Below, piece after piece: positions 41,095 to 57,776 of a DNA stretch of 64,000 nucleotides. How positions within the stretch are numbered: position 1 is the stretch's first letter; each line of letters begins with the position of its first letter. The stretch is from an uncultured Anaerolineales bacterium (GTDB lineage: Bacteria > Chloroflexota > Anaerolineae > B4-G1), in assembly GCA_964653285.1 (NCBI GenBank), contig CAZZEX010000003.1:1195-65194 (forward strand), written 5' to 3'. The notes below the pieces were generated by a model. The model was not told where the DNA came from. It searched no databases and saw only the letters and a program-made list of their open reading frames with translations. A program made the translations under genes and the position numbers.

Positions 41095-41343
41095 ATGGAG
41101 GGTGCTCTGACGACGGTTTACCAGTTCACAGTTGTCATAGAACCAGACGAGGACGCATTTCACGCCTACGTCCCGGCCTTGCCCGGTTGCCACACTTTTG
41201 GAGCCACCGTCGAGGAAGCACGAAGCAACATCGCAGAAGCCATAGCACTACACATTGAATGCATGCAGGAGGATGAGGAAGCCATCCCCGTTGAACGCGA
41301 ACCCCTGTTTATCACTCGCCTGTCCGTGCCGGTGGCAGCATGA
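41095..41343 (+). CDS. hicB: HicB family antitoxin
   Basis: VVIEPDE..FHAYVPALPGCHTFGATVEEA..NI.EAI. Confidence 0.88.
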   Translation: MEGALTTVYQFTVVIEPDEDAFHAYVPALPGCHTFGATVEEARSNIAEAIALHIECMQEDEEAIPVEREPLFITRLSVPVAA

Positions 41344-41375
41344 GCCCCAAACTTCCACGAGTTGATTGCCGTCAA
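41340..41375 (+). pseudogene. hicA: HicA toxin 5' stub (12 codons) in frame with next gene
   Basis: MSPKLPRVDCRQ is a typical HicA N-terminus, ATGA-coupled to hicB. Confidence 0.55.
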
Positions 41376-42116
41376 ATGTCCAGCGCGGTTTCCACCCTGC
41401 AAGACTTCCCCTGGGATGAGAGCATCCAGGCCGTCAAAGACAGCCTGCGCTTCGACTCGTACCCAGCCTTCGCGGAGCACGTCTTCAGCACGCTACCCCA
41501 GAACTCCCCCCAGACCCGCCGCCGCTACACCAACCTGATCGGCCGTTGGTTCTTCCCTGACCGCCAACTCCCCGGCCCGGCCGGCCGGGTGTGGGCCGCC
41601 TACGGGGACGAGAAGGTACTCCGCGACGTGATGCGTGTCTGTGTACTCTCCCAGGAGCCAGTCGTCGCCGCGTTCATCGAGCGGTTTATCCGGCCCGCAC
41701 CGCCGGGCGCCGAGTTGCAAGGAAACGTGTTCCGAACGTACATCAAGGAGACCTACGGCGAGTTCAAGCGCCAATCACACCAGCGCCTCACCCGCACACT
41801 GCGCGAACTGGGCTTTATCGTCAGGATTGGGCAGACCTGGTTCACACAAGCCCTCATTCCCCGCCCCGCTACCGCCTTCCTGATCCTGCTCCACGAGCGG
41901 TTCGCCCCCACCCCTCGCATCGTCTCGCTGGCCCGGATTCTGGCCGACCCGCTGTGGTGGCAGGTGGGCTACCACGCCCCGGCCGAAGTGCGGGAAACGT
42001 TACACGACGCGGCTGCCGGCGGCCTGATTGCCCGTTTTGTCGCCGTGGATCAGTTGGAGCAGGTCACCACCCGCTACACGTTGGACGAGTGGCTGGCCCG
42101 GAGGCTGCGGCTATGA
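41376..42116 (+). CDS. BrxA-like putative DNA-binding protein
   Basis: 246 aa, helical/wHTH character, QNSPQTRRR; first gene of BREX-like operon (mostly positional call). Confidence 0.5.
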   Translation: MSSAVSTLQDFPWDESIQAVKDSLRFDSYPAFAEHVFSTLPQNSPQTRRRYTNLIGRWFFPDRQLPGPAGRVWAAYGDEKVLRDVMRVCVLSQEPVVAAFIERFIRPAPPGAELQGNVFRTYIKETYGEFKRQSHQRLTRTLRELGFIVRIGQTWFTQALIPRPATAFLILLHERFAPTPRIVSLARILADPLWWQVGYHAPAEVRETLHDAAAGGLIARFVAVDQLEQVTTRYTLDEWLARRLRL

Positions 42117-42607
42117 CACCGGATGATCTGCGCGAGACTTTTGGGCGCTTGGCGCGAGGCCCCACCGCAGCGACGCAAGCGGGCCGGCACCTCTACCTGT
42201 GGCACGGCGATCTGACCGCGCTGGAGGAATTGGTGCCGCCGGTACTGTTGCAGCGGTTCAACCTCTACGCGCTGGCGGGGCGACTTCCGCGCACGCCCTA
42301 CGCCGCTGACGAAGCCCGCCGTCTGCTGCGCGCTCAGATCGAGCAAGAACTGCACGACCGGGCCGCCCGTGCCTCCCGGCAGGTGCTCACCGTGGACGGC
42401 TGCACCCTGCTGGCGCGCTACGGCGTGCCCCTCCAGCCCTTCTACTCCTTCGTCAGCGACAGTCACGCCGTCGTCCTGGTGGTGGCTCGCGAGGAGACGG
42501 AGTTCGTCCCACCCGCGCTGCTGCCGGATTTCGTTCGCCTGGCTCCGGCGACGACGTTTGCCGCGTTGAGCCGGGCCGTGGGGGAAAAGAACGTCGTACA
42601 AGGATGA
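42113..42607 (+). CDS. BrxF/BrxB-like inactive P-loop protein
   Basis: 164 aa, Walker-B-like VLTVDG, no Walker A; directly before BrxC-like ATPase. Confidence 0.5.
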   Translation: MTPDDLRETFGRLARGPTAATQAGRHLYLWHGDLTALEELVPPVLLQRFNLYALAGRLPRTPYAADEARRLLRAQIEQELHDRAARASRQVLTVDGCTLLARYGVPLQPFYSFVSDSHAVVLVVAREETEFVPPALLPDFVRLAPATTFAALSRAVGEKNVVQG

Positions 42608-42613
42608 TAGAAT

Positions 42614-45600
42614 ATGGAACGAGTACCGCTGCGCACGCTCATCCGTCCCCGGCCGCAACCGGAGACCACGCTCGACCTGCGCCGCTCCGTCGCCCAACCG
42701 GAGGCCACCGTCGGCACCTACGTGTTCACGGATAGCATCCGACGGCACTTCGAGGAGATCCTGGAGCACATGGCCCGGGGCGAAGGCCAGGGCTTTTGGG
42801 TACAGGCCGAGTACGGAGCCGGCAAGACCCACTTCCTGGCGACGCTGGCCTGCCTCCTGTCCGGCGACGACGCGCTGTGGAAACAGGTACAAGACGACGG
42901 TATTCGTCTCTACCGTCGCCGCCTGCGCGGTACCCGCCTGTTCCCGGTCGTCATCTCCCTGCGCGGCGAGGCAGAGACCGACGCGGTCGCCACTCGCCCC
43001 CTGTTCGACGTCATCGAGGAGAGGCTGGAACACTCGCTGAAGGAGCACGGCCTGCGCGACGCTGTACGGCTCACGCTCGCCGACGACCTGCTGGACTGGT
43101 TCGCGGGGCAGCCGGAGGGGACGCGCGGGGACATCGAGACCTACGTGCAGCGCCAGACCGGCCAGTCCCCTGGCGCGCTGCGCGAGTACGAGGGCGACGC
43201 CGCGCTCACACACCTCCTCCGGGCCTACTGCGACGAGCACTCCATCCGCCCGCAGGTGGCCTCGACCGTCAAGGCGCGGTTGTGCCACATCTACGACCAG
43301 TTGACGTCACCGGATTTGCCTGGCGGATCCTACGACGGCCTGCTATTCGTGATAGACGAGTACGAGGGCTGGGAAAAGTCACGCCCTCGTGGTTCTTCAC
43401 AACAAGCCCGAGATGAGGATTTGCTGGAGACGATGGCCTTCGTCCTGCCCAGGGGCGAGGGGCTGCGCATCTTCACCGTCGTCGCCTCACAGACAGCGGT
43501 GCCGGCTAAACTGCGCGGCGAGCACGGCGGCGACCGCTTTATCAACGTGCCGCTTCTAGCCGGCGCCGAGCGCGACTACGACCTCATCGTCTCGCGCCGC
43601 GTGCGCGAACTGGAACCCGAAAAACTGCCGGAGGTGGACGAGTACTACCACTACTACGCCGAGATGTTCGATTTCGTCCGCGACCTGAACGAGGACCAGT
43701 TCCGCGACATCTTCCCCTTCCAGCCGCGCTGCTTCGACGTCGCACGCCGCATCACCGAACGCGATCTGCCCACCGCCCGCTCCGGCATCCTCATCTTCTG
43801 GCAGGCGCTCAACCGGCCGCGGTTGCTCGACTGCGACACCCTCATCCGCGTGGCCGACCTGCTGGAAAGCGACCACCTGCACGAATGTCTGAACACGACC
43901 GTCTACCGGCCCGCCTTCGACGCCTACCGGGTGGCCCACGAGGGGCTGGAGAGCCTGGGGCTGGAGAAGACCGACCTGCAACTGGCCCAGGACGTGCTGG
44001 CGACGCTGTTCCTCTGGCACCTGGCGTACCTGACAGGGCCCCGCCCGCTGTCGCTGAAAGAGTTGGCTCAGGCGACGCTGACCGTCTCCGACCTTCTGCG
44101 CGCCGAGGACGCCGTGGCCTACGTCCTGGCCCGGATGCGGGAACTACCCCAGGTGCGCTTCGACGACCAGGGGGCAGCGTTCGTCGTGACCGGCGGGGAA
44201 GGCCCGACGCCGGTGGAAGTCTTCAGCCGCTATCGCGAGGAACCGCTGCGCGACGCCCACGCCGTCGCCCAGGCCTGGACCGACGGGCTCTTTCTCACCC
44301 CCCGTGAGACCGGGGGCCAGGCAGGGCTGTTCGGTGACTTCGAGCCCAACGAGATGAAGCGGCTCCGCGCCGAGTTCCGACACCTGGAGTACAACGGGGA
44401 GGTCGTCGTGGCCACACACTGGCAACTGGACTGGAGCCTGCCGCTGCCCGGCGAGGACGTCCATTTCCGCATCGTCATCCTCACCGGCCACAAGCCCGAC
44501 GCCGTGAAGCCAGCTGACCTGCAAGACCCGCGCATCGCTGTGATCGTCCCCTCCGAACTGGTGGGCGGAGCGCACGCGGCTGCAGTGGACTACCTGGCCT
44601 GGCAGAACATGGAGCGGGACTACCGTGATCGAACTGGCCCGGAGGCCGAAAAGATGCGCGACTGGCTGGTGACCAGGCGGACGACTGTGCTGAGCGACCT
44701 GCTGATGAAGCAGACCGGCCTGTACCGCTCCGCCACCGTCGTCACCCGCGACGGGCTGGCGATTGACGTGCGCGAGGCGATGGGGCTGGCCGGAACGGAG
44801 CACCACGTCGGGTACGTCGTCGAGCGCCTCCTGGCGGCGGCCTACCGGGACCTGCCCGTCGAGGCGGGCAAGTTGCGCTCCCTCCTGCACCCCAACGACG
44901 CGGGCAAACTGTTCGGCGGCCTGTTCGGCCGCCAGCAGACCTCCGCCGCCCGCGCTGCCGTGCGTAACTACGGCGTCGGGCTGGGCCTGGTGCACCCCGA
45001 CCGGCCCACCGGCTTCAGGCCCACCGCTTGCCGGGCCTTCGACCTGATCCGCGCCATGCTGGACGAATACCAATCGCAGGGACGGGAACTGCCGGCCTGG
45101 CGCATCTACGAGCGCCTGTCCGGCGTGCCCTACGGCCTCCCCTACCCGCTGATCCAGTTGTACCTGCTGGCGTTCGTGCGCCACGGCCAGCCACGGGTCG
45201 AACTGAGACTCAAGCCGGGCCACCGGCTGACGATACGCAAGGGCCAGCCTTTGCCCAGGCCCGCGCTGACGATGACCAACGTGGTGGACGTGGACTGGAA
45301 ACTGGGACTGAACCGTTGGTTCGACGCGCTCATCCCCGCCCGTGGCCCCAGTTGGAACGACACAGTAGCCTTCGCCCGTGAGGTCAAGCCCGACCTGCAC
45401 GCCGCCTCCGACCCGGCCGAGATTGAGCGCCAGGATAACGCACTCCGCGCCGCGATGGAAACGCTGAGCCAGGAGGCGCAGACGGCCCACCGGGGACTGG
45501 AGGCGCTGGCCCGCTCGCTGCAGGGCGAACTGACCGACGAGGCTGGCGAGGTGCTCGACCGGATGCTCGCCTTGGGCCAGGCCGGTGCGCAGGGGTACCA

Positions 45601-46546
45601 GGCTTTCCACGAGCGGGTTCAGGAGCACTACGCTTCGCCCGAGCCGCTGCGCGAGGACGTGAGCGCCTACACGCGGCTGCGCCGTCTGGCCGGGTACGCG
45701 GCCGAGATTCAGGAGACGCGGGCCTACCTCGACGCGATGCTCCTCCGTCCGCAGGACAGCGAACTGGCCGGCGACCGCATGCTGTTGCTGGGGCAACTAT
45801 CGCTGGCGGAATTGGAGCGCAATCCGGCGCTCTGGCCCTCCGTCTCCGACTCCTTCGGGCGGCTGAAGAGCCGCTATCGCACGGCCTACCAGAAGCACCA
45901 TCGCGACACCTACCGGGTGATGGCCGACTTGCGGGCGCGGCTGGAGGACGTACCCCGGCGGCTGCACGCACTGGCGTTACTCAACTCCATTATGGAGTTG
46001 GGCGAGCCGGTGGGTGCGGACCTGGCCGAGGGATACGCACGGCTTCAAGAGCGGCTGCGTCCGTGCCCAGTGACGGAAGTGACGGCGGTGGACGTCGAGG
46101 CCCAGCCAGTGTGCGCCGCCTGCGGCCTGCCGCTGACCGTCCGCGCCCCGGCCGCCGAGGTTGAAGCGTTCCTGGGCGACCTGGAGCGGGCGCTGCAGGA
46201 GCAGAGGCGGCGGCTGAGCGCCGAGGCAGTGCGCCGCGTGCTGGAGCGCGCCGGCGGCGACGAACTCTCGCGCCTGATCGAGGCCGCCCGCGCGGCCGAG
46301 ATTGCCCGCCTGGTGGACGTGCTCGACGAGCGCGTGGCCGAATCCATCCGCAAACTGCTGGTGGAGGACGGGCTGGTGACCGCCCCGGCAGAGGTATTTG
46401 CGCAGTTGGCCGAGTTGCATCCCACCGTCGGGGAGGGCGAGATACCCGCCACCGTGCGCGACTTTGAGGGCTTGCTGCACGAGGCATTTGATGAGGCGCA
46501 GAAGGCGCACCCGGACAAGAAGACGGTGAGAGTAAGTCTCAGGTAA
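42614..46546 (+). CDS. brxC: BrxC/PglY-like ATPase (DUF6079-like)
   Basis: Walker A AEYGAGKTH, Walker B LLFVIDE, FPFQP, coiled-coil C-half, C...PVCAACG zinc site. Confidence 0.75.
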   Translation: MERVPLRTLIRPRPQPETTLDLRRSVAQPEATVGTYVFTDSIRRHFEEILEHMARGEGQGFWVQAEYGAGKTHFLATLACLLSGDDALWKQVQDDGIRLYRRRLRGTRLFPVVISLRGEAETDAVATRPLFDVIEERLEHSLKEHGLRDAVRLTLADDLLDWFAGQPEGTRGDIETYVQRQTGQSPGALREYEGDAALTHLLRAYCDEHSIRPQVASTVKARLCHIYDQLTSPDLPGGSYDGLLFVIDEYEGWEKSRPRGSSQQARDEDLLETMAFVLPRGEGLRIFTVVASQTAVPAKLRGEHGGDRFINVPLLAGAERDYDLIVSRRVRELEPEKLPEVDEYYHYYAEMFDFVRDLNEDQFRDIFPFQPRCFDVARRITERDLPTARSGILIFWQALNRPRLLDCDTLIRVADLLESDHLHECLNTTVYRPAFDAYRVAHEGLESLGLEKTDLQLAQDVLATLFLWHLAYLTGPRPLSLKELAQATLTVSDLLRAEDAVAYVLARMRELPQVRFDDQGAAFVVTGGEGPTPVEVFSRYREEPLRDAHAVAQAWTDGLFLTPRETGGQAGLFGDFEPNEMKRLRAEFRHLEYNGEVVVATHWQLDWSLPLPGEDVHFRIVILTGHKPDAVKPADLQDPRIAVIVPSELVGGAHAAAVDYLAWQNMERDYRDRTGPEAEKMRDWLVTRRTTVLSDLLMKQTGLYRSATVVTRDGLAIDVREAMGLAGTEHHVGYVVERLLAAAYRDLPVEAGKLRSLLHPNDAGKLFGGLFGRQQTSAARAAVRNYGVGLGLVHPDRPTGFRPTACRAFDLIRAMLDEYQSQGRELPAWRIYERLSGVPYGLPYPLIQLYLLAFVRHGQPRVELRLKPGHRLTIRKGQPLPRPALTMTNVVDVDWKLGLNRWFDALIPARGPSWNDTVAFAREVKPDLHAASDPAEIERQDNALRAAMETLSQEAQTAHRGLEALARSLQGELTDEAGEVLDRMLALGQAGAQGYQAFHERVQEHYASPEPLREDVSAYTRLRRLAGYAAEIQETRAYLDAMLLRPQDSELAGDRMLLLGQLSLAELERNPALWPSVSDSFGRLKSRYRTAYQKHHRDTYRVMADLRARLEDVPRRLHALALLNSIMELGEPVGADLAEGYARLQERLRPCPVTEVTAVDVEAQPVCAACGLPLTVRAPAAEVEAFLGDLERALQEQRRRLSAEAVRRVLERAGGDELSRLIEAARAAEIARLVDVLDERVAESIRKLLVEDGLVTAPAEVFAQLAELHPTVGEGEIPATVRDFEGLLHEAFDEAQKAHPDKKTVRVSLR

Positions 46547-46553
46547 GTATTCC

Positions 46554-47396
46554 ATGACAAAGAAGCGCACTTCCCGGCGGCGCAGATCAAAATCCGCTCG
46601 CTCTACCAGTGCACGTCTCAGCCCGGCTCAACTCAACGGATTGCTCAACCAGGGCCGACGGCTGTTGATATCCGGCGAGCATGAGCGTGCAATCTCCGTT
46701 CTGGAACGGGCGTTGCCGCATCTGCCACGCAACCGCCAGCGGGCCGAGGCGCTCAGCGACCTGGGAATGGCCTACGGTATGCTCAAGCGTGACGAGGATT
46801 CGTACCGGGCGTTGCTGGAGGCCACGCAGATTGCCCCTGACGATGTGCGCATCTGGTATAACTTCGGTCAGACCTGCCGGGGGGCCGGGCGGCTCGTGCA
46901 GAGCCTGCGCGCCTACGAGCGTAGCGCGGCGCTGAACCGCGACCCCCGCCTGGCTTCCAGGATTGCCAAAGATGTTGCCCTGGCTCGCCAGTTGGTAGAG
47001 ACCGAGTTGAGCGTGCGCCCACCTGGCTTTACCGTTGATGACCTGCTGGCGCAGGAGAACCTGTTCCTGGCAGGTGTGGAGGAAATGGTTGCCCGGCAGT
47101 GGGACCGCGCCGCCGATCTTTTCCGGCAGGCGCTTGCCCTGGCCGACACGATCCCGCAATTGTGGGGTAACCTGGGCATCTGCCTGCTCAACCTGGAACA
47201 GTACGACGAGGCCGAAGCAGCGCTCCGCCGGGCGCTGAAGCGTGACCCTGACTACGATCTTGCCCGGCAGAACCTGGCCGCCCTGGCGGAGATGCGCCGC
47301 TCGGGCGGACGCCCCATTGTGGCGATGCGTGACCCCCTGGCTGGTCGGCCGGCTCCAAAGATCTTCTACCCGGAGATGGATGAACACCATGGTTAA
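46554..47396 (+). CDS. TPR-repeat protein with basic N-terminus
   Basis: About six TPRs (e.g. LWGNLGICLLNLEQYDEAEAALRRAL). Confidence 0.8.
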   Translation: MTKKRTSRRRRSKSARSTSARLSPAQLNGLLNQGRRLLISGEHERAISVLERALPHLPRNRQRAEALSDLGMAYGMLKRDEDSYRALLEATQIAPDDVRIWYNFGQTCRGAGRLVQSLRAYERSAALNRDPRLASRIAKDVALARQLVETELSVRPPGFTVDDLLAQENLFLAGVEEMVARQWDRAADLFRQALALADTIPQLWGNLGICLLNLEQYDEAEAALRRALKRDPDYDLARQNLAALAEMRRSGGRPIVAMRDPLAGRPAPKIFYPEMDEHHG

Positions 47397-47533
47397 CGAC
47401 CTCCATCTTTTCTCATCTACTATGATGCCGCCCACTACGACCACATACTGACATCTGCTGTCACATCCATTTCCCCTGCACCGAGAAGTATGCTATACTG
47501 CGTCACGAAACCAACTGTTGAAAGGTGTGTTTC

Positions 47534-48343
47534 GTGTCGAGAAATATAACAGAACTGGGTCCCAGGGAGGCGGAGTTTCTCTCCAGATTGGCCGGTGAGG
47601 GACGGACTATCTTTACCGTCGAGCAGGCACGGTGCTTCTGGGGAAACACCGACTACACGACCAACGTCCTGGGGCGGCTGGAAAGCAAGGGGTGGCTGCG
47701 CCGGCTGGAACGCGGCACGTACCTGATCATCCCCCTCGAAGCGGGCCCCGCACGCGACTGGTCGGAGAGCGCGCTGGTGATCGCGCCGTACCTCATCCAG
47801 CCAGCGGCAATCGCCTACTGGTCGGCGCTGCACTACTGGAATATGACCGAGCAGGTACCCCGCACCGTCTTCGTCCAATCCACCCGCCGCAAACACCGGC
47901 GTCGGGTAGAGGTACTGGGCATCCCCTTTCGCTTCGTCACCGTCGTCGAGGCCAAGTTCTTCGGCGTGGTCAAGCGCACACTTGATGGCAAGCCGCTTTA
48001 CGTCACCGACCGGGAGAAAACGCTGCTGGATGCGGCCGACCGCCCCGACCTGAGCGGCGGCATCGGCCAACTGGCCCAGGCATTGCGCAATGCCTGGGCC
48101 GACGTGGACTGGCAGCGGCTGGACGAGTACCTGGCCCGTTGGGGGACAGGCAGCCTGACCAAGCGGCTTGGCTACCTGATAGAGATACTGGAACTGCCGC
48201 TCCCCGACCGGGAGGAGCGTCTGACCCGCTGGCGCCGTTCGCTCTCTAGCGGCATTGCTTCCCTCGAACCCAGAAGTGGCGATAAGGGCCACGTCGTGAC
48301 CCGCTGGCGAGTGCGCGTAGACGTAGAGGAGACGTGGCAATGA
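47534..48343 (+). CDS. abiEi: Type IV TA antitoxin AbiEi family
   Basis: wHTH ...RLERGTY, AYWSALHYW.MTEQVP, TDREKTLLD. Confidence 0.85.
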   Translation: MSRNITELGPREAEFLSRLAGEGRTIFTVEQARCFWGNTDYTTNVLGRLESKGWLRRLERGTYLIIPLEAGPARDWSESALVIAPYLIQPAAIAYWSALHYWNMTEQVPRTVFVQSTRRKHRRRVEVLGIPFRFVTVVEAKFFGVVKRTLDGKPLYVTDREKTLLDAADRPDLSGGIGQLAQALRNAWADVDWQRLDEYLARWGTGSLTKRLGYLIEILELPLPDREERLTRWRRSLSSGIASLEPRSGDKGHVVTRWRVRVDVEETWQ

Positions 48344-49254
48344 TCGGCGAGGCCGAACTGCGGCGCTGTGCGGCGCGTTGGGGCGTGGATCCGATGATGG
48401 CGGATTTGGACTACAGCCTCGGCTGGTTCATCGCCGCGCTGTACAGTGCGAACGAGATCACCAGCCGGCTGTGTTTCAAAGGCGGCACCTGCCTGCGCAA
48501 GTGTTACTTCGCCGACTACCGCTTCTCCGAGGACCTGGACTTTACGGCCACGGTTCGTCTCAGCCCCGACCGGCTGCTGGAATGGGTAGAGCAAGCCACC
48601 CGCTGGGCTGCTGAGGCGGATGGCCCGAACTATCGGGCTTCCCCTCCGCGCCTGGAGACTGTCCATGATGAATACGGAAGCGAGACGTATCAGGTGCGGG
48701 TCTACTACCGGGGGCCATTGCGGTGGGGCGGGGACCCGCGCGCGATACGGCTGGATGTGACCCGTGAGGAACGGCTGGTGCTTGCCCCGGCGATTCGTCG
48801 CCTGATTCACCCGTATTCCGACGGGCCGGTGCTTGCCCAGGCGGAGATTGCCTGCTACACGCTGATCGAGGTACTGGCCGAGAAAGTGCGCGCCGTGGGC
48901 GGGCAGCGCCGCTTTGCTATTTCTCGTGACATCTACGACATCCATCGTCTGGTGCAATCCGGCGTGACGGTCGCCGATGTGGTGCCGCTACTGCCGGCCA
49001 AGTTCGCCGCCCGGGGTGTGGACATTGAGACTCTGGCCGTAGAGCGGTTCACAGCCCGGCGTGCCGCCTTTGAGGACGATTGGAACCAGCGTCTCGGCCA
49101 TCTTGTTCAGGACGCGAGCCCCGTGACTTTTGACGCTACCTGGGAGACGACCGTTGATGTGCTGCGACAGGTTGAGGAGAGCCTGGGAAAGCGACCGTCA
49201 GCGTCCCGTGCGTCTCACACAGGAGGAGACGGCTCTGATGCCCAAGCCCAATGA
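48340..49254 (+). CDS. abiEii: AbiEii/AbiGii nucleotidyltransferase toxin
   Basis: FKGGTCLRK, RFSEDLDF, AEKVRA, RDIYD. Confidence 0.9.
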   Translation: MIGEAELRRCAARWGVDPMMADLDYSLGWFIAALYSANEITSRLCFKGGTCLRKCYFADYRFSEDLDFTATVRLSPDRLLEWVEQATRWAAEADGPNYRASPPRLETVHDEYGSETYQVRVYYRGPLRWGGDPRAIRLDVTREERLVLAPAIRRLIHPYSDGPVLAQAEIACYTLIEVLAEKVRAVGGQRRFAISRDIYDIHRLVQSGVTVADVVPLLPAKFAARGVDIETLAVERFTARRAAFEDDWNQRLGHLVQDASPVTFDATWETTVDVLRQVEESLGKRPSASRASHTGGDGSDAQAQ

Positions 49255-51562
49255 CTTGAAAGCCTTCCTCGCCCACCACGCCACCCCCTACGACCCCGCC
49301 AGCGACACCTACCGCCGGCCCCCCTTCGCCGCGCCGGTGAAGGCCGGCAAGAACACGCCCGTCTACAACGCCCACTCCTACCACACCAAGGTCCCGCCCC
49401 AGGGCATCGTCCCCTATATCCTGCACTACACCGACCCCGGCGATCTGATCCTCGACCCCTTCTGCGGCTCCGGGATGACCGGCGTGGCCGCACTGATGTG
49501 CGCTCACCCTCCAGCCGAAGCGTTACACCTGGTATCCGGCGTTCAGCCCGGCCCCCGCTACGCGGTGCTCAACGACCTCTCCCCCGCTGCGACGCACATC
49601 GCCTACAACTACTGCACCCCTGTTGACGTGGAACCGCTGCGGCGGGAGTTCGAGCGCATCAAGGCCGCGGTGCAGGAAGAGTTCGACTGGCTCTACGGCA
49701 CGACCTGCGACCGCTGCGGTGGCCCGGCGACCATCCAGTACACTATCTGGAGCGACGTATTCGAGTGCGCCCGCTGCGGGGAGGAACTGGTGCTGTGGGA
49801 CGTGGCGGTGGACTCTGAGAGCGGCAAGGTGCGCAAGAGGTTCACCTGCCCGGTGTGCGGCAAAGAGCAGGTCAAGAAAGGGTTGCACCGGGTGGGGTCG
49901 GTGCCGGTCGTGACCAACTACGAGTGTGCACGCTGCAAGCCCCATCGCGCTGAGCACCCCACAACTGAGACGGAAAAGCAGCGCATCGCCGAGATCGAGA
50001 GTGCTGACATCCCCTACTGGCACCCTACGGATGAGTTCCCATTGGGCAGGCAGACACGCAAGATTCGGAAGGGGACCGCAGGCATCAGCCGAGTTGACCA
50101 GATGTACACGAAGCGTAACCTTTGGGCATTGGCGCGGCTCTGGTCCGAGTTCGAAGGTGTCGAAGATGAGCGGATTAGTTCGGCTCTGTGGTTTGCGTTC
50201 ACTTCAATTGGGCTCACGTCTACGAAGATGTATGCCTATCGCGCTACAAGGAAGGGTGGTATTCATAAAGGCACTCTCTACGTTCCTGCTCTCAACTGCG
50301 AACTCAATGTGGGAGCAAGTATCGCCCGGAAGGTAGGGGGCATGTGCCGTTCTCTGATCAAGACTGGAGAGGGTGGTGTGGTTGTCGCAACTGGTTCAGC
50401 AGTCAACTTGGGAGACCTACCTCGCGCGAGTGTTGATTATGTTTTCACAGACCCTCCGTTTGGTTTGAATCTTCAGTATGCTGAGATCAACTTTATCTGG
50501 GAATGCTGGCTTCAGCGATTTACGGACTGGTCCCAAGACTGTGTGATGAATTACGTCCACGAAAAAGACCTGGTTTTCTACAGCGATGTGATGACCCAGG
50601 CATTTGTGGAGATGTACCGCGTGCTCAAGCCGGGCCGTTGGGCATCGGTCGTCTTCCACAATACCGACGACGCAGTGTGGCGGGCAATTCAGGAAGGAGC
50701 ACAAGAAGCCGGTTTCGACGTGGTCAACGCCATGGCTTTCGACAAGAGACAGGGCACCTTCAACCAGGTCAACATGGGTAAAGACAGTGCCGCTGGCTTT
50801 GACGTTGTGCTCAACCTGTACAAGCCCCGTCGCGACGGCACTAACGGCAGAGCGACACCAATCACTGACGTCGAGACCAAGGTTGTGGAGGCCGTGGCTG
50901 CTCACCTCTCCAACAACCCACCGGCAGAGCATCGCACAACCCAATTCCTGCACAGTTTTACCATCCGTCAGTTGCTTAACTCTAATGTCTTGATCGAGAA
51001 GGTGACCATCCCCTATCTGGAGGCGGTCCTACCCCACTACTTCAAACAGATTGAGGGCTGCTGGTATCTGCGCGGCGAGCAGGTGATCGAGGGCGGGCTA
51101 GGGCTGATTGTCAAAGACGAGCCCTCCGCCATCGCCTGGCTTTCGCGCCTGCTGGAGAACGAGCCCCAGACCACCGGCGACCTGATCCCGCAGTGGCAGA
51201 TGACCACGCTCGACGCGCCAATCGCCAAGCCGCTGGACCAGATCCTGGAGGAGAACTTTTGGCAGGATGGGCGCACCGGCCGCTGGCGGCTGCCCACCGA
51301 AAAAGAGCGGCGCAAGATGTCCGCCAAAGAGGAGGTCGCCGCCCAGGCCCACCTGCGCGTCGTCCACCGCTACCTGGATGGCGGCCTGGAGCGCCGCCCT
51401 GGCGACCTGGAACTGTGCCTCTGGATCCGCTTCTGCTACCGCCGCGAGTTCTATGCCGAGGCGGTGGCCCTCTTCCCCCACGTGGACGAGACCCGCGTGG
51501 ACGCGGAGGAGTACCGGAAGGTGCGCAAGATTGTCGAGGTGTGCCGGCTGAAAGGCGAGTAG
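49238..51562 (+). CDS. PglXI-like amino-DNA methyltransferase with zinc ribbons
   Basis: YHTKVP, DPFCGSGMTG (motif I), four CxxC, DYVFTDPPF (motif IV), YRVLKPG; AGGAGG RBS. Confidence 0.85.
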   Translation: MPKPNDLKAFLAHHATPYDPASDTYRRPPFAAPVKAGKNTPVYNAHSYHTKVPPQGIVPYILHYTDPGDLILDPFCGSGMTGVAALMCAHPPAEALHLVSGVQPGPRYAVLNDLSPAATHIAYNYCTPVDVEPLRREFERIKAAVQEEFDWLYGTTCDRCGGPATIQYTIWSDVFECARCGEELVLWDVAVDSESGKVRKRFTCPVCGKEQVKKGLHRVGSVPVVTNYECARCKPHRAEHPTTETEKQRIAEIESADIPYWHPTDEFPLGRQTRKIRKGTAGISRVDQMYTKRNLWALARLWSEFEGVEDERISSALWFAFTSIGLTSTKMYAYRATRKGGIHKGTLYVPALNCELNVGASIARKVGGMCRSLIKTGEGGVVVATGSAVNLGDLPRASVDYVFTDPPFGLNLQYAEINFIWECWLQRFTDWSQDCVMNYVHEKDLVFYSDVMTQAFVEMYRVLKPGRWASVVFHNTDDAVWRAIQEGAQEAGFDVVNAMAFDKRQGTFNQVNMGKDSAAGFDVVLNLYKPRRDGTNGRATPITDVETKVVEAVAAHLSNNPPAEHRTTQFLHSFTIRQLLNSNVLIEKVTIPYLEAVLPHYFKQIEGCWYLRGEQVIEGGLGLIVKDEPSAIAWLSRLLENEPQTTGDLIPQWQMTTLDAPIAKPLDQILEENFWQDGRTGRWRLPTEKERRKMSAKEEVAAQAHLRVVHRYLDGGLERRPGDLELCLWIRFCYRREFYAEAVALFPHVDETRVDAEEYRKVRKIVEVCRLKGE

Positions 51563-51576
51563 GGAGGGAACCTATA

Positions 51577-51925
51577 TCAGGGCTTTACCGAAGCCGCCTG
51601 ACCTAACCCCCCAGCCCCCTTCCCTGCAAGGGAAGGGGGGCGGAAGCTCTCTCTCCACTCTCCGCTTCGGGGAGGGGGGGAGCGGAAGCTCTCTCTCCAC
51701 TCTCCGCTTCGGAGAGGGGGGGAGCGGAAGCTCTCTCTCCACTCTCCGCTTCGGGGGGGGAGCGGAAGCCCCCTCTCCCCTCTCCGCTTCGGGGAGGGGG
51801 GGGAGCGGGAGCCCTTTCTCCCCTCTCCGCTTCGGGGGGGGGGGAGCGGAAGCCCTCTCTCCCCTCTCCGCTTCGGGGAGGGGCCGGGGGAGGGGTTCTC
51901 TTGGCAGACTTTGGGATAGCCTTGA
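51577..51925. repeat. Tandem array of six ~42-bp hairpin units within imperfect TIRs
   Basis: GCGGAAGC(Y)nCTCTCCGCTTCGGGGAGGGG units at 51640, 51682, 51724, 51762, 51805, 51846; ends TCAGGGCTTTACCGAAG and CTTTGGGATAGCCTTGA. Confidence 0.85.
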
Positions 51926-51926
51926 C

Positions 51927-52052
51927 CGCAGTATCGCAAAAGTCGCCCTGACGGTTAGCCGTCATTCTGAGCGTAGCGAAGAATCTCCCTACTACCTTGG
52001 TCGAAACCCTTCGCTTCGCTCAGGGTGACAGGGTGAGTTTTGCGCCATTGCG
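51927..52052 (+). mobile_element. MITE/REP-like family A, full copy
   Basis: CGCAGTATCGCAAAA...TTTTGCGCCATTGCG; inverted relative to the 40906 copy. Confidence 0.7.
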
Positions 52053-52097
52053 ATACGAGATATTGGCGGGGCTACAGTCTTCGAGGAGGTGTCTGGA

Positions 52098-52170
52098 TCA
52101 CGAAGGTCACGAAAGAACGCGAAAGCCACGAAGTTTTCGTGCTTTTCGTGCCCTTTCGCGTGTTTCGTGG
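52098..52170. repeat. Inverted arrays of 9-mer repeats (CACGAA.. x4 and ..TTCGTG x4)
   Basis: Read directly from sequence. Confidence 0.65.
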
Positions 52171-52237
52171 TTCAGGGCCCCGTGTCAAAGTCGTCACTAT
52201 GAACAGATTGCCGGTGTCCGGTTAGGGGGGAGAACTC

Positions 52238-52975
52238 ATGTCCGCGTCAGTTTTTGAAGTGCAATCCGATTACGAAGTGCCACTTCTTCGTCTGCTGCCC
52301 ACACTTGAGGGAGGTCAGGGACAGGCAAGCGAAGTCATTCGTCTCTTCGCTGAACGCTATGAAGACAACATCCACGCTGACCAGCGCGAACTGTTATCAA
52401 GGGGGATACCCAGATGGCACGTAAACGTGCAGCGGGCGCGGTATGGACTCGTGCAATGCGGCCTGATGGACGCACCGGCACATGGCGTCTGGCGCATCAC
52501 CGAGGCAGGACGCCAATGGCTTCAGGAGCACCCCGAAGCGACACGACTGGAACCCGGACGTCGCCCGCGACGGCCCCGCTCTCGACGGAGCCGCACGACC
52601 GTTCCGCCAGACGTCACGCTAGAGCAACTCAAAGCCACCAAAGCCGTGATGCCCCCTGATCAGTTCCGCCACATCTGGGGGGAACTCTACGACCAGTTGC
52701 TGGCCGAGGAACGCGCCCGCTCCAAGACCAGCATCTCTAACCGGGAACTGGGCACCCGGGCCCGCGCCGTCCTGCGCGAGGTGCACGGTTTTCTGGACGG
52801 CAACGCCGCTGCCTCCTCAGAGAAGGCCTACGACTGGATGCAGTTCTGCTACGCGCTGGGCCTGTATCGTGAGACGGCCGCCCTCTTCGCCTTCGTCTTT
52901 CAGGACGACTTGCCCGCATGGGCCTACGAACGTGCGCGCAAAGTGGCGGAGGCGTGTCGAGCGCGACTGGGGTAG
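52238..52975 (+). CDS. Mrr N-terminal wHTH protein lacking nuclease domain, with methylase-like C-terminal domain
   Basis: PLLRLL...RWHVNVQRARYGLV..GL....GVWRITEAG. Confidence 0.78.
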   Translation: MSASVFEVQSDYEVPLLRLLPTLEGGQGQASEVIRLFAERYEDNIHADQRELLSRGIPRWHVNVQRARYGLVQCGLMDAPAHGVWRITEAGRQWLQEHPEATRLEPGRRPRRPRSRRSRTTVPPDVTLEQLKATKAVMPPDQFRHIWGELYDQLLAEERARSKTSISNRELGTRARAVLREVHGFLDGNAAASSEKAYDWMQFCYALGLYRETAALFAFVFQDDLPAWAYERARKVAEACRARLG

Positions 52976-53101: not shown

Positions 53102-53587
53102 ATGAGCCATGCGGAGAGCCTCCCATCCCTGGATGAACTATTGCGCAGCCTCAATCACACCGACACCCTGACCACCAGCCGCGCTCTGACCCACCTGGAG
53201 AGCCTGAGCCTGCTGCGTCGCTCCGAACAGCGTCGCGGGCCGGGGGTCTATTACACCCTGGTCGAAAAAGAGGAAACTCCTCAGATTACTTCTAAGGTTA
53301 CTCCTGATACTGTGTCCCAACTCCTTATCTTGTTGAGAAAAGGAAAACGACTCTCAAGGGATGAAACCATCACACTTGTCATTTCGCTCTGCACCAAGCG
53401 ACCACACACAGCGCGCGAGTTAGCCCAGATTTTGAATCGCAACGCCGATTACCTGCGTAACGCCTATCTTTCGCCGTTGGTGCGAGAAGGACGGCTGCAA
53501 CTCACCGGTGCGCCCAACGACCCCAACGTCGCCTACCGCGCGATAACAAACAAAGACACGGGCAATGACAGCAGAATCCCTATATGA
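53102..53587 (+). CDS. Winged-helix protein like the C-terminus of RecG-like/AlbA-ATPase or Fic proteins (possible remnant)
   Basis: LC...TARELAQILNR...YLR..YL.PLV.EG.L...PNDPN.AY. Confidence 0.6.
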   Translation: MSHAESLPSLDELLRSLNHTDTLTTSRALTHLESLSLLRRSEQRRGPGVYYTLVEKEETPQITSKVTPDTVSQLLILLRKGKRLSRDETITLVISLCTKRPHTARELAQILNRNADYLRNAYLSPLVREGRLQLTGAPNDPNVAYRAITNKDTGNDSRIPI

Positions 53588-56270
53588 CCATTTCGAGCAC
53601 CTCATCGCCTGTCTGCCGCCCCAGGCGCGGCTGGCGCTCGCGCTGGACCCGCCTGGACTGCTGGGGCTGGGGGAAGCCGTAGAGGTCGAGGGGCGGCGCT
53701 GGACCGTCTTCCGCTACGATGGCAACGACCTGGCCTTCCGCCAGGCCTACGGCCACCACGGGCCGGACACCCCCCACCTGGTCTGGATCACCCGTCCCCC
53801 TGGCTATCTGACCACACGACCACTTGACCTCAGTTTCCTGACCGGCGTGGTGCGCCGCGCCGACGCGATCCTCGATCTCAGCCTGCTCGGCGTGCTCAAG
53901 GCCCTCAAGCCCCGCGAGACCTGGCCGCCGGCAGCGGTGGCCCGCTTCGAGCCGCTCATCGCCGCTCACCTGGGCACGGTGCTGGCCGCCCACGCCGACC
54001 TGCGCCGCGTGCTGGGCCCCGGCGTTCCCCTGGACACCCACTGCCTGCGTGCGCTGGTGCTGCACGCGCTCCATCCGGCCGTCCCCATGGGCGACCTGAC
54101 CTTCCGCGACCCGGACCCCCGCCGGGCGCTCACCCGCTACCTGCGGCTACTCGTGCAGGAGGAGTGGGACGAGGAAGGGCTGGCCTTGCTTCAGGATCAA
54201 GCCCGCCTGGCCCCAGGGCCTCCTGCTGAGGAACTGGCCCCCTGGTTCGAAGCGCCCCCGGTGGCGTTGATGCGCTACCTGTACCTGCGCCGCCTCCTGG
54301 CCCGGCAGCGCGTCGCCAACATCGCCGCCGTCACGCGCGCGCTGCTCCCCTTCGACCCGCGCCCGCTGGAGCCCGGAGTGGGCTTCGCGCTGTATCTGTG
54401 GGACGACGACCCCGCCTGGCGCGAGTCTCTGATCGTCCGTACCGAGCACATGCTGGACAAGGTAGAACTGGACGAGGCCCTGGCCCTGCTGGGGGCCGGC
54501 CGCCCCGCCGATCTCTTCGCCGCCCTGGCCGAGGCCGAGACGCCGGCCGTGGTCTACGGGCTGGGTCGGCAGCTACTGTCCGGCATAACCGGCACCGAGG
54601 AACTGGGCCGCATCGCTCTCACCTGGACGCGCCGCCGTCCGCCATTGGCCGCCTGGCCCAAGACCTCCTACAGCCGCCACGCCCGTGACCTGGCTGGCTT
54701 CCTGGACGAACTGGCCTTCCTGTTCGACCGCCTCACTCAAGAGCGTCGCCCTGAGCCTGTCGAAGGGATGAGTCCGCCGACGGGGGCGGCTGGTCTGGTA
54801 GACTGGTACGTCGAACAGCGGTTCTACGATCTGGAGTATGCTGGCGCCCGCGCCGCCGATGCGCTCCAGCGGCTGCCAGGGCTGACCGAAACCCTGCGGC
54901 CCCTGCTCGACCAGGTACGGGCGACGGTACGACAACACCTCAACCGCCTGGATCAGGAACTGGCCCGTCGCATCGGCGAGGACTGGCGCGGCTACCTGGG
55001 CCACCCGCGTCTATCGTCCAACGTCCTGCGAGATGCGCTTATCAAGCCACGCCAGAAGGTCAGCTGCGAATCTAGCGTCTGGATCATCGTCTTCGACGGT
55101 ATGCGCTACGATAGTTGGGAGCGGGTCGTCAAGCCTCGCCTCCTGGAGCGCTACAGCCTGGAGCGGGAGCGGCCCTACCTGAGCCTGCTTCCCTCGTGGA
55201 CCACCATCGCCCGCACGGGGCTCCTGGCCGGCAAGCCTCCCGAAGGCTGGCGCAGTTACCGCGGCCGGGTCACGCTGAACCAGGAGATGTTGGCGGCACG
55301 GCTTTTTGGCCTGAGCGAGGCCGAGCGCAAGCGGAGGTTGCGCTTCTACTCCGGGATGGAATCGGACCGCACCCAGCGCAAACTCGACCGGCGCAAGCGG
55401 TTTCCTTACAACGTCCTCGTCTTCAACGTCAGCGACGACAACCTCCACGCCATGCGGGGCAACCTGGTGGCGCTGAACGAGGTGGTCGCATCGCTGCTGA
55501 AGGGCATCCTGGAGACACTGGACAATCTGGTGCAGCCGGACGACACGCTCATCGTCACCAGCGACCACGGCTTCGTCGAACTGGAAGAAGGCCAAGCGAT
55601 CACCATCCGCGATGACACTCGCTGGCAGCGTTACGTCGAGGGTGGCCGGCACCCCGTCCATTACCGCTTCATCCGGGGCGTGGAGCGACCGGGGGGGTTG
55701 GCCGACGAGGATGCCCTGACGTTCGAGTATCCCAATCTGCGCGACGGCCAGTTCACCGTGGCGGTGGGCCGGCGCTGGTTTGCCCGCGAGGGGACCACCC
55801 GCCCCGACCGCTACGCCCACGGCGGGCTGAGCCTGGCCGAGATGGTCGTCCCCGGCGCGGTGCTGCGTCCCATCGTCGCGCCGCTGGTCAGGCTAGCACT
55901 GGAGAGTTTCCCGCGTGCGCTGACCGTGCAGGAGGGAGAGGAGACCGTCATTGCGCTCACGCTGGTCAACAGCGGCAACCAGCCGGCCCATTTCACGCTG
56001 GAGGTCGGGGCCAACACTGCCCGCGAGGCCCACCGCCAGGAGGGAGACCTGCGGCCGGGGCAGCGTCTCCCCGCCTCCTACCGCTTCACGCCCGTCTACG
56101 CCGACGTCCCAGGCGAGGTGGGCACGGAGCGCGTCACCGTCAAAGTCACGTACCAGGACGCCGGGGGGAAGCGCCGGAAACTGTCACGCTCCGCGACGGT
56201 CACCGTCGAGCCGCGCAAAGACGTCGTGAAGTTCAGTCTGGGCGGCCTGGACGAGTTGGATGATTTGTGA
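53565..56270 (+). CDS. pglZ: PglZ (BrxZ) alkaline-phosphatase-fold protein with Ig-like C-terminus
   Basis: IIVFDGMRYD, LPSWT, TSDHGF, HGGLSLAEMVVP. Confidence 0.88.
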   Translation: MTAESLYDHFEHLIACLPPQARLALALDPPGLLGLGEAVEVEGRRWTVFRYDGNDLAFRQAYGHHGPDTPHLVWITRPPGYLTTRPLDLSFLTGVVRRADAILDLSLLGVLKALKPRETWPPAAVARFEPLIAAHLGTVLAAHADLRRVLGPGVPLDTHCLRALVLHALHPAVPMGDLTFRDPDPRRALTRYLRLLVQEEWDEEGLALLQDQARLAPGPPAEELAPWFEAPPVALMRYLYLRRLLARQRVANIAAVTRALLPFDPRPLEPGVGFALYLWDDDPAWRESLIVRTEHMLDKVELDEALALLGAGRPADLFAALAEAETPAVVYGLGRQLLSGITGTEELGRIALTWTRRRPPLAAWPKTSYSRHARDLAGFLDELAFLFDRLTQERRPEPVEGMSPPTGAAGLVDWYVEQRFYDLEYAGARAADALQRLPGLTETLRPLLDQVRATVRQHLNRLDQELARRIGEDWRGYLGHPRLSSNVLRDALIKPRQKVSCESSVWIIVFDGMRYDSWERVVKPRLLERYSLERERPYLSLLPSWTTIARTGLLAGKPPEGWRSYRGRVTLNQEMLAARLFGLSEAERKRRLRFYSGMESDRTQRKLDRRKRFPYNVLVFNVSDDNLHAMRGNLVALNEVVASLLKGILETLDNLVQPDDTLIVTSDHGFVELEEGQAITIRDDTRWQRYVEGGRHPVHYRFIRGVERPGGLADEDALTFEYPNLRDGQFTVAVGRRWFAREGTTRPDRYAHGGLSLAEMVVPGAVLRPIVAPLVRLALESFPRALTVQEGEETVIALTLVNSGNQPAHFTLEVGANTAREAHRQEGDLRPGQRLPASYRFTPVYADVPGEVGTERVTVKVTYQDAGGKRRKLSRSATVTVEPRKDVVKFSLGGLDELDDL

Positions 56271-56336: not shown

Positions 56337-57776
56337 GTGGATAACCTGACGGTTGAAGTAGATACGCTGGCGCAGCAACACCTGGGCGACCGGGTCGTCC
56401 TCAAGCCCCTCACGCGCTGGAACGAGGCCTACAAGGAGTTTCCGCGCTACGTGATGGAGTACCTGTGCGCAAGATACGTGGACCCGGGCAACCCCATCCC
56501 CGGCCAGATGCGGATTGACCGCCTCCTGAGCGAGCACTACGCCGAGAGCGAGGCCCGCGAGTTGATCAAGAGCCGCATCAAGGAACAGGGGGAGTATGTC
56601 CTGTTGGGGCAGTTGCAGGTGCGGCTCGACCAGGCTCGCGACCATTACTGGGCGGAAGTGCCGGCGCTGGGCGACAACTTCGTGCGCATCAGCCCGCGCG
56701 TCCTGAGCGATTACGGCGAACCGCTGCTATCCGGCGGAGCCTGGGGCACGATGAACATCGAGTACGACGCCCGCTACGAACTCAAGGGCCGCATCTACCC
56801 CTTCTTCATCCGCCAGTTCCGCCCCTTCCAGATCACCCGCCTGGACCTGGACGACTACGTCGAGAAGCGGAGCCTGTTCGACACCGACACCTGGATCGGC
56901 CTCTTGATCCAGTCCATCGGCTTCAACCCCGACCGGCTGAGCGAGCGGGAGCGATGGCTGATGCTCCTACGGCTGGTGCCCTTCGTCGAGGCCAACTACA
57001 ACCTGATCGAACTGGGGCCCCGCGAGACCGGGAAGACCTACACCTTCCGCAACACCTCCAGCCGTTCCTTCGTCATCTCCGGCGGCAAGGCCACGCCGGC
57101 CACGCTGTTCTACAACATCGCCACCCGCAAGATCGGCATCCTGGGCTACAAGGACGTCGTCTTCTTCGATGAGATCGCCAGCACCCACTTCACTGATCCG
57201 GAGGCGACGATCAGCGTCCTCAAGGACTTCATGCAGACCGGCCACTTCAGCCGGGGGCGGCTGGAGTTCACGGCCCAGGCCAGCATTGTCCTGGGAGGCA
57301 ATATTGACACCGACATGGAACGGCGGGAGCCTTCGCCGCGTTACCGCCATCACTTCGAGATCCTGCCGCCGGAGTTACAGGATCCCGCCTTCCTGGACCG
57401 CATCCACGCCTTCTTGCCCGGCTGGGAGATGCCCAAGGTGCGCCCGGAGAACTATGCGACCGGCTACGGTTTCATCACGGACTATATGGCCGAGATTTTC
57501 ACCCGTCTCCGCCGCCGCAACTACCAGACCCACATCGCGGCCCACGTGGACTTTGGGGGGATGACCGGGCGCAACCAGGATGCAGTCAAGAAGACCACGG
57601 CGGGCCTGCTGAAACTCGTCTTCCCCCACCGCACCGCCGATGACCTGGAGCGGGATGAACTGGAGATGTGCCTGGCCCTGGCCGTCGAATGCCGCCAGCG
57701 GGTGCTGGATCAACTGGCGGTGATGTCGCCGGAGGAGTTTGGTGGGGTGAGGGTGGAGGTGAGGGTGGAGGAGTGA
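56337..57776 (+). CDS. brxL: BrxL-like MCM/AAA+ ATPase without Lon protease domain
   Basis: PRYVMEYL, ELGPRETGKTY, VFFDEIA, AFLDRIHAFLPGWE; only 479 aa. Confidence 0.88.
   Translation: MDNLTVEVDTLAQQHLGDRVVLKPLTRWNEAYKEFPRYVMEYLCARYVDPGNPIPGQMRIDRLLSEHYAESEARELIKSRIKEQGEYVLLGQLQVRLDQARDHYWAEVPALGDNFVRISPRVLSDYGEPLLSGGAWGTMNIEYDARYELKGRIYPFFIRQFRPFQITRLDLDDYVEKRSLFDTDTWIGLLIQSIGFNPDRLSERERWLMLLRLVPFVEANYNLIELGPRETGKTYTFRNTSSRSFVISGGKATPATLFYNIATRKIGILGYKDVVFFDEIASTHFTDPEATISVLKDFMQTGHFSRGRLEFTAQASIVLGGNIDTDMERREPSPRYRHHFEILPPELQDPAFLDRIHAFLPGWEMPKVRPENYATGYGFITDYMAEIFTRLRRRNYQTHIAAHVDFGGMTGRNQDAVKKTTAGLLKLVFPHRTADDLERDELEMCLALAVECRQRVLDQLAVMSPEEFGGVRVEVRVEE

Follow-up and report, generated by a model that had tools for sequence, protein, structure and literature searches.

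The gene cluster

Positions 41.3-57.8 kb of the window analyzed here, a 64,000-nucleotide stretch of contig CAZZEX010000003.1 from an uncultured Anaerolineales bacterium (Chloroflexota), hold a single + strand gene cluster that resembles the bacteriophage exclusion (BREX) systems, as read from its open reading frame (ORF) translations and from scans with Pfam, PADLOC and NCBIfam. Two of its products, a DNA methylase and a small accessory protein with an Mrr_N winged helix, end in the same helical module, hereafter the C-dom, which is the subject of this analysis. The methylase (49238..51562, +) is of the PglXI type and carries the Pfam domain N6_N4_Mtase; the PADLOC PglXI profile (PDLC02541) matches it at E 1e-168 over residues 43-597 only. 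Its longest ORF starts at TTG 49130 (810 aa), and it is counted here as a 774-aa protein from ATG 49238 because its homologues have ~770-780 aa. The accessory protein (245 aa; 52238..52975, +) consists of an Mrr_N winged helix (52277-52528; Pfam Mrr_N 7.7e-12), a basic disordered linker, a two-helix segment that we label 'MID' (52610-52717) and the C-dom.

These two genes lie among the components of a BREX core. Upstream is the gene of a BrxC-like ATPase of 1310 aa (42614..46546, +), which matches Pfam DUF6079 above cutoff (3.2e-12) and PADLOC BrxC (1.5e-10) and scores 30.8 bits against NCBIfam BrxC, whose cutoff is 400. Downstream are the genes for PglZ (901 aa; 53565..56270, +; Pfam PglZ 2e-10, above cutoff; PADLOC PglZ 1.4e-12), with the acidic tail GGLDELDDL, and for a short BrxL (479 aa; 56337..57776, +; Pfam BrxL_ATPase 2.2e-113 and BrxL_N 2.2e-23), which has the N-terminal and ATPase domains without the Lon-like C-terminal domain and matches NCBIfam TIGR02688 above cutoff (1.1e-137). 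Two small genes complete the operon at its start, and both precede brxC in related loci. The first (41340..42116, +) encodes a possibly BrxA-like protein of 258 aa that matches no family in Pfam, NCBIfam or PADLOC (including at E <= 1), and whose similarity to a 'BrxA family protein' annotated on a Halorarius plasmid (BLASTP E 3e-8) covers 50 aa only. The second (42113..42607, +; 164 aa) has tblastn matches at the same position in 14 related loci; the label 'BrxF-like' that the preliminary description gave it is unverified, with no family in Pfam or in PADLOC at E <= 1 and a BLASTP E of 0.49 against an annotated BrxF.

Homology and extent of the shared module

The preliminary description of this stretch had proposed that the methylase and the Mrr_N protein share a C-terminal domain of ~75 aa. 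The two C-termini that it quoted are read so in the ORF translations, and both the pairwise and the profile alignment that it suggested prove significant; the length needs a slight correction, since the domain, which falls inside the span given there, comprises ~88 aa. By BLASTP the two proteins share one significant segment, with 31/91 residues identical (34%, E 6e-10), which pairs methylase residues 721-808 (numbering of the 810-aa ORF) with Mrr_N protein residues 155-243; the remaining segments have E of at least 1.8. Homologues were retrieved for both, 63 of similar length for the Mrr_N protein and 101 for the methylase's C-terminal region, and alignments of 35 Mrr_N-family (A1) and 37 methylase-family (A2) sequences were compared profile to profile. 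The resulting hhalign match (probability 98.9, E 2.6e-17, 88 columns) extends over Mrr_N protein residues 156-245 and methylase residues 688-774, counted from ATG 49238, and this span sets the coordinates of the C-dom at 52703..52972 (+) on the Mrr_N protein and 51299..51559 (+) on the methylase. A local profile of the module recovers both copies, that of the methylase at E 4e-42.

No Pfam family, tetratricopeptide repeat (TPR) models included, matches the 90-aa C-dom at E <= 0.1, and the genome assembly (5.1 Mb, 219 contigs) contains these two copies and no third. In the main texts of the literature searched on BREX, PglXI, PglZ, HARE-HTH and the Mrr N-terminal domain, no description of such a module was found. 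The C-dom is a previously undescribed helical module of ~88 residues, strictly C-terminal, and constitutes a new domain family.

Predicted fold

The AlphaFold2 model of the whole 245-aa protein (mean predicted local distance difference test, pLDDT, 89) shows a winged helix at residues 1-97, a linker that is basic and disordered (109-122), and then six helices over 128-244. Residues 123-245 modeled alone from a 46-row alignment again give six helices, at pLDDT 96.6 and a predicted template modeling score of 0.76. When this second model was searched with an exhaustive aligner, nearly all matches to the shared part were hairpin domains of the TPR, TPR-like or MIT kind, among them the peptide-binding domain of prolyl-4-hydroxylase (4bta_A; Z 8.2, root-mean-square deviation 5.6, 117 aligned), TM1634 (2vkj_A; Z 8.0, deviation 2.6, 54 aligned) and a TPR subunit of the anaphase-promoting complex/cyclosome, APC/C (8a3t_D; Z 7.9, deviation 1.7, 50 aligned); the neighbor at rank 50 has Z 6.6. 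A VIA-align search with the whole protein was filled by winged-helix matches to residues 1-102. Language-model neighbors are TPR proteins, which score 0.92-0.93 and share 139-160 features, short of the tool's mark of 170, and the positions conserved in the C-dom (W, F-C-Y, A and L-F) resemble the core pattern of the TPR consensus. The C-dom is therefore predicted, from modeling, to form TPR-like helical hairpins, about two of them with a capping helix.

Distribution and carriers

Seventeen C-doms, taken from the window and six related loci, were made into a profile (A3), which was searched against 1.84 billion representative proteins and returned 323 clusters at E <= 1e-3, of which 267 reach E <= 1e-10. 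Of the 323 clusters, 145 were examined. In all 145 proteins the C-dom ends within 12 residues of the C-terminus, and in five of them it occurs as a tandem pair. The Pfam families found on these proteins are nearly all DNA-binding heads: Mrr_N on 65, HARE-HTH on 12 and N6_N4_Mtase on two, with HTH_6, Trans_reg_C, HTH_IclR, PhdYeFM, RAMA, DUF7112 and DUF7008 once each. The module is rare: of 401 sampled genomes from the phylum, only that of the window gave a strong match, and two others gave weak ones. No carrier of the Mrr_N protein's C-dom, such as a fusion to a core component, was found among 694 candidate longer proteins (430-2000 aa), which is weak evidence.

Related loci and their accessory genes

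To place the module in its genomic setting, 53 related loci were fetched with the Mrr_N-family alignment, six from species genomes (metagenome-assembled genomes of Chloroflexota) and 47 from metagenomes, and annotated by local tblastn, blastp and the C-dom profile. Eleven of them are short contigs with accessory genes only. The same order recurs: the 258-aa gene, the 164-aa gene, brxC, the methylase gene with its C-dom, one or more accessory genes with a C-dom, pglZ and a short brxL. Wherever the context suffices, the C-dom occurs in this one type of BREX-like operon. Methylase and PglZ are both present in 21 of the 54 sources (the 53 loci and the window), and across these 21 loci every one of the 34 accessory genes is placed after the methylase gene and before pglZ, none elsewhere; 13 loci have a single accessory gene, four have two, three have three and one has four. 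There are also more distant layouts. G307 repeats the arrangement, its methylase (C-dom E 4e-9) being followed by ORFs of 186 aa (C-dom E 1e-3) and 260 aa (C-dom not significant) and then by PglZ and BrxL. In G359, PglZ occurs with a PglXI-like methylase that has a weak C-dom-like end (E 2e-4) and with a long BrxL.

What precedes the C-dom on the accessory proteins was classified with local profiles under our own labels MrrN, HARE, MID and 'XD', the last an unnamed domain of ~140 aa. The most common of the 71 accessory ORFs is the arrangement of the window, Mrr_N-MID-C (37), followed by XD-C (6), unknown-MID-C (5), Mrr_N-XD-C (4), Mrr_N-C (4), C only (4, fragments or remnants), Mrr_N-Mrr_N-C (3), HARE-C (3), HARE-MID-C (2) and three singletons. 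For the accessory proteins of locus L006, Pfam confirmed both HARE-HTH and Mrr_N, and for accessory proteins with an unknown head there was no Pfam match in 7/8 and no PADLOC match at E <= 1 in two. Unnamed domains are carried by accessory proteins at L004 11073-11792, L005 11910-12641, L006 11058-12395 and 12423-13991, and L026 8812-9975. XD, which is sometimes doubled, matches nothing in Pfam or PADLOC; its language-model neighbors are unnamed Chloroflexota clusters, with DUF4268 at only 0.78. A head of ~260 aa in L026, L028, L030 and L047 likewise has no match.

History of the module

A midpoint-rooted FastTree tree was built from the last 78 residues of 87 distinct C-doms, and in it the copies group by carrier. 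All 29 methylase C-doms fall in a clade of 30 (support 0.96), whose extra member is an 86-aa remnant at the methylase deletion of L048. MID-type C-doms form a pure clade that takes in 34 of 37 (support 0.83), and the 12 XD-type C-doms make up most of a clade of 14 (support 0.84). Because of this grouping, the module has not been shuffled between methylase and accessory proteins; it has long been retained on each class of carrier, and the changing part is the head that precedes a stable MID-C or XD-C. The preliminary description had called the module possibly interchangeable; this applies to the heads of the accessory proteins and not to the C-doms themselves, as methylase and accessory copies form separate clades. 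Mean pairwise identity is 0.53 for the C-dom in both families; the values for the Mrr_N head, MID and the methylase core are 0.47, 0.61 and 0.57, respectively.

The catalytic part of the methylase has been lost in several related loci. Internal deletions are present in L002 (622-1290) and L025 (452-1120), and L019 (5952-6854) keeps only the last ~160 methylase residues, the C-dom included. At L048 (5617-5877) and L049 (9691-9951) only an 86-aa C-dom remnant is left and brxC is split into three ORFs, while L017 retains only the end of brxC and an accessory gene.

Comparison with known systems

One of the closest known systems is type 3 BREX, which is composed of BrxF, BrxC, a PglXI/BrxXI methylase, the BrxHII helicase, PglZ and BrxA. 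It shares with the window operon the PglXI-type methylase, PglZ and two small genes before brxC, and the window operon also has a BrxC-like ATPase (DUF6079). The methylase of the window is 34% identical, up to residue 674, to its counterpart in a Roseomonas plasmid locus annotated as BREX-3, where a helicase gene is next. The two systems differ in that type 3 has BrxHII, whereas the window operon has a short BrxL after PglZ; scans of ten locus proteins detected no helicase, and in the related loci BrxL likewise follows PglZ. They differ also in the methylase's C-terminal region, C-dom included, since the matches to the PglXI profile and to the plasmid methylases stop at residues 597-674. We considered whether the C-dom is a general C-terminal domain of PglXI proteins and rejected this: it is not detectable in the Roseomonas type 3 methylase (hmmsearch E 0.41; hhalign probability 0.8) and is weak in that of the Halorarius plasmid (E 2e-6 by hmmsearch in a set of ten proteins; E 0.009 and probability 4.5 by hhalign) and in G359.

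The type 3 description in the main-text passages of a 2026 survey (PMC12839542) treats BrxHII as part of the core and the methylase's C-terminal region as three helical domains resembling helix-turn-helix (HTH) domains, and accessory C-dom genes fall outside it. In the same passages BrxL is wholly missing from types 2 and 3, the type 4 BrxL is a short form of ~480 aa without the Lon-like domain, the word 'Mrr' is absent from the main text and HARE-HTH occurs only with nuclease fusions (PMC12839542). Type 4 BREX (the 3'-phosphoadenosine-5'-phosphosulfate, or PAPS, reductase BrxP, BrxC, PglZ and short BrxL) has PglZ and the short BrxL in common with the window operon, which also has a BrxC-like ATPase, but a PAPS reductase where the latter has a DNA methylase, and neither PAPS reductase nor DUF4007 was matched among the ten locus proteins scanned. 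The window operon is therefore a type-3-style methylase combined with a type-4-style BrxL and an accessory array and, as far as the types are set out in those passages, fits no published one, so that the range of BREX layouts is widened.

Outside BREX, the accessory protein resembles Mrr-type (type IV) restriction enzymes in its N-terminal Mrr_N winged helix (PF14338 7.7e-12, residues 14-97). Those enzymes carry a catalytic nuclease domain where this protein has MID and C-dom helices. The preliminary description was right that it has no nuclease domain: Pfam, PADLOC and NCBIfam find no nuclease family on it, Pfam finds Mrr_N alone, and the remainder is the disordered basic linker and six helices. 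The C-dom resembles TPR and TPR-like adaptor domains in its predicted hairpin fold, for which Z scores of ~8 are not decisive; it differs from them in having no Pfam TPR match and only about two hairpins with a capping helix. A further likeness, in idea alone, is to type I restriction-modification, in which DNA-recognition subunits (HsdS) stand beside the methylase (HsdM) and assemble with it through a conserved region. The heads on C-dom proteins are winged helices, not the target recognition domains of HsdS, and no relation in sequence or fold is known.

Possible function of the module

On balance, and with moderate confidence, we favor the C-dom as a module for protein-protein assembly, through which the methylase and a set of swappable DNA-binding heads would join one BREX complex. 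It can be read as an assembly tag because it is strictly terminal, because a single operon has it both on an enzyme and on DNA-binding proteins that are not enzymes, and because its heads are swappable, its predicted fold is a hairpin repeat and it is occasionally present in tandem copies. TPR-like folds are typical of protein-protein contacts. The C-dom would dock at a common core site, on PglZ, BrxC or BrxL, or would contact another C-dom; the five proteins with tandem C-doms are as expected if modules can sit side by side. The heads (Mrr_N, HARE-HTH, XD and others) would add DNA anchoring or sensing of DNA state to the complex. Both Mrr_N and HARE-HTH occur, according to their Pfam descriptions, in restriction enzymes directed at modified DNA, and the role of HARE-HTH was reportedly described by Aravind and Iyer in 2012, a work that the survey cites. 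This shared background makes sensing of DNA state by the heads plausible.

Several points weigh against this assembly reading. That the C-dom binds protein, which partner it binds and what the heads read are all things that we infer. Foldseek returned nothing from the PDB at E <= 1e-3, either for the whole protein or for the isolated domain, and Z values of ~8 are in a range common for helical models, so 'TPR-like' names a fold class and not a function. The conserved positions of the C-dom, being like those of the TPR core, point to no interface. Its last helix is rich in Arg and Lys, which makes contact with DNA possible. Genomic context was seen for a minority of the 323 clusters, the presence of at least one accessory gene per locus is built in because the accessory protein was the query, and some loci are near-duplicates (L020/L021/L023/L024, L048/L049 and L015/L016). 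A complex prediction for methylase residues 600-774 with Mrr_N protein residues 123-245, with alignments supplied, scored 0.00, no controls being run, and lends weight to neither side of the question.

The basic character of the module also underlies a different account, unlikely in our view, in which the C-dom is a helical nucleic-acid-binding domain that acts in cis, adding an extra contact to DNA or RNA, and nothing docks on it. The alignments agree with this in that two helices, the last one and the one that precedes the FLxG turn, are basic; its carriers are all DNA-binding or DNA-modifying proteins, and the survey passages call the C-terminal helical domains of type 3 methylases HTH-like (PMC12839542). 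That description may not fit the C-dom, however, because the Roseomonas type 3 methylase has no detectable copy, and none of the 50 listed structural neighbors is an HTH or winged-helix domain, the matches being to hairpin repeats, TPR and MIT among them; a location strictly at the end of proteins equipped with one or two DNA-binding heads is, moreover, more typical of an assembly tag. We consider it very improbable that the C-dom is a functionless relic of a partial duplication of the 3' end of the methylase gene. Such a tandem duplication would be simple and the two genes are neighbors, yet the module is conserved in both families where whole-protein identity falls to ~45-50%, occurs in 323 clusters with many types of head, and forms old carrier-specific clades.

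A regulatory role is decidedly unlikely as well, although it accounts for some features of the loci. Here the accessory proteins would compete through their C-dom with the methylase for a core site, or would regulate transcription of the operon, and so set the balance between methylation and restriction. They do have a C-dom and no enzyme domain, their C-doms form clades distinct from but related to that of the methylase, and accessory genes were kept where the catalytic part of the methylase was lost (L019, L002/L025 and L048/L049). Up to four accessory genes with different heads, on the other hand, look more like an array of sensors or adaptors, and these genes lie in the middle of the operon and not upstream.

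The preliminary description had suggested docking onto the BREX core, with the Mrr_N protein as a possible plug-in sensor. That proposal has held up in part: the domain common to both proteins exists, its loci are BREX-like operons of one type, the heads in front of it change, as would suit a plug-in module, and its predicted fold is TPR-like. A bolder form of the assembly reading, for which we see only a slim chance, would make the C-dom a plug for one kind of socket on the core (PglZ, BrxC, BrxL), shared or competed for by the methylase and an array of reader heads (Mrr_N, HARE-HTH, XD) specific to each locus; the plug that is bound would decide between methylation of a DNA site as self and restriction, and the heads would read the modification of incoming DNA. 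If true, BREX would possess a swappable, evolvable sensor layer, and its switch between modification and defense a physical basis. For the question of how BREX complexes assemble, find DNA and choose whether to methylate or block it, a common terminal module is a testable handle, and the C-dom adds an unnamed domain family of > 300 clusters.

The acidic tail of PglZ

PglZ ends in an acidic amphipathic tail (56241-56267) that is conserved in 20 related loci, in forms such as GGLDELDDL, GDLDRLDDLL and GGLDDLEI, and a similar tail occurs in two distant PglZ proteins encoded beside BrxL (G001 and G307). The ends differ in two PglZ proteins from the phylum that belong to other BREX layouts. Some partner may use the tail as a short docking motif. 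On another contig (G000:C9, L067 8168-16246, - strand), the genome of the window has a second cluster of BrxC-like, PglZ (803 aa) and BrxL genes. This cluster is without any C-dom protein, and its PglZ has a looser, similar tail (FDLRELF). The idea that the tail is a peptide bound by a TPR-like C-dom was set aside as unsupported, a similar tail being present in a C-dom-free locus of the same genome.

Cargo and other features of the operon

Between the methylase gene and the Mrr_N gene lies a gap of 676 bp, which is unusual, as the same genes are adjacent or overlapping in related loci. It contains a 42-bp tandem repeat (51635..51883; Tandem Repeats Finder score 377) in six copies with 89% matches, where none are expected, and no copy occurs elsewhere in the window. 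Further downstream, a 161-aa gene without a C-dom (53102..53587, +) overlaps the start of pglZ by 23 nt. Its product matches no family in Pfam, NCBIfam or PADLOC (including at E <= 1), and a relationship to the Schlafen/AlbA_2 cargo protein of L006 was rejected, there being no similarity (BLASTP E 19). The gene is probably cargo or a remnant, perhaps of mobile cargo. A homologue in L003 (7325-7765) lies downstream of brxL. In L031 an ORF at the same place (316-813) has an N-terminus that is alike by eye, and a 664-aa ORF on the opposite strand downstream of it is possibly an insertion sequence transposase.

The brxC-methylase junction is a hotspot for cargo. Of the 20 loci listed, many being near-duplicates, 11 have a spacing of 22-123 bp between these genes, and the other nine (seven distinct once near-duplicates are merged, window included) have inserts of 0.8-5.4 kb. 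The cargo of the window (46554..49254, +), which is absent from most related loci, encodes, according to Pfam and PADLOC, a TPR protein (46554-47396, +) and the pair AbiEi (47525-48343, +) and AbiEii (48334-49254, +). Other inserts occupy L004 6273-7829, L005 6714-7520, L006 6400-7949, L015 4285-5501, L026 1133-6516, L032 4091-6079 and L038 4371-7653. Their contents include an AbiEi/AbiEii pair in L032, a Schlafen AlbA_2/HATPase_c_4 protein in L006, an IS200-like transposase in L004 and a DDE transposase in L026.

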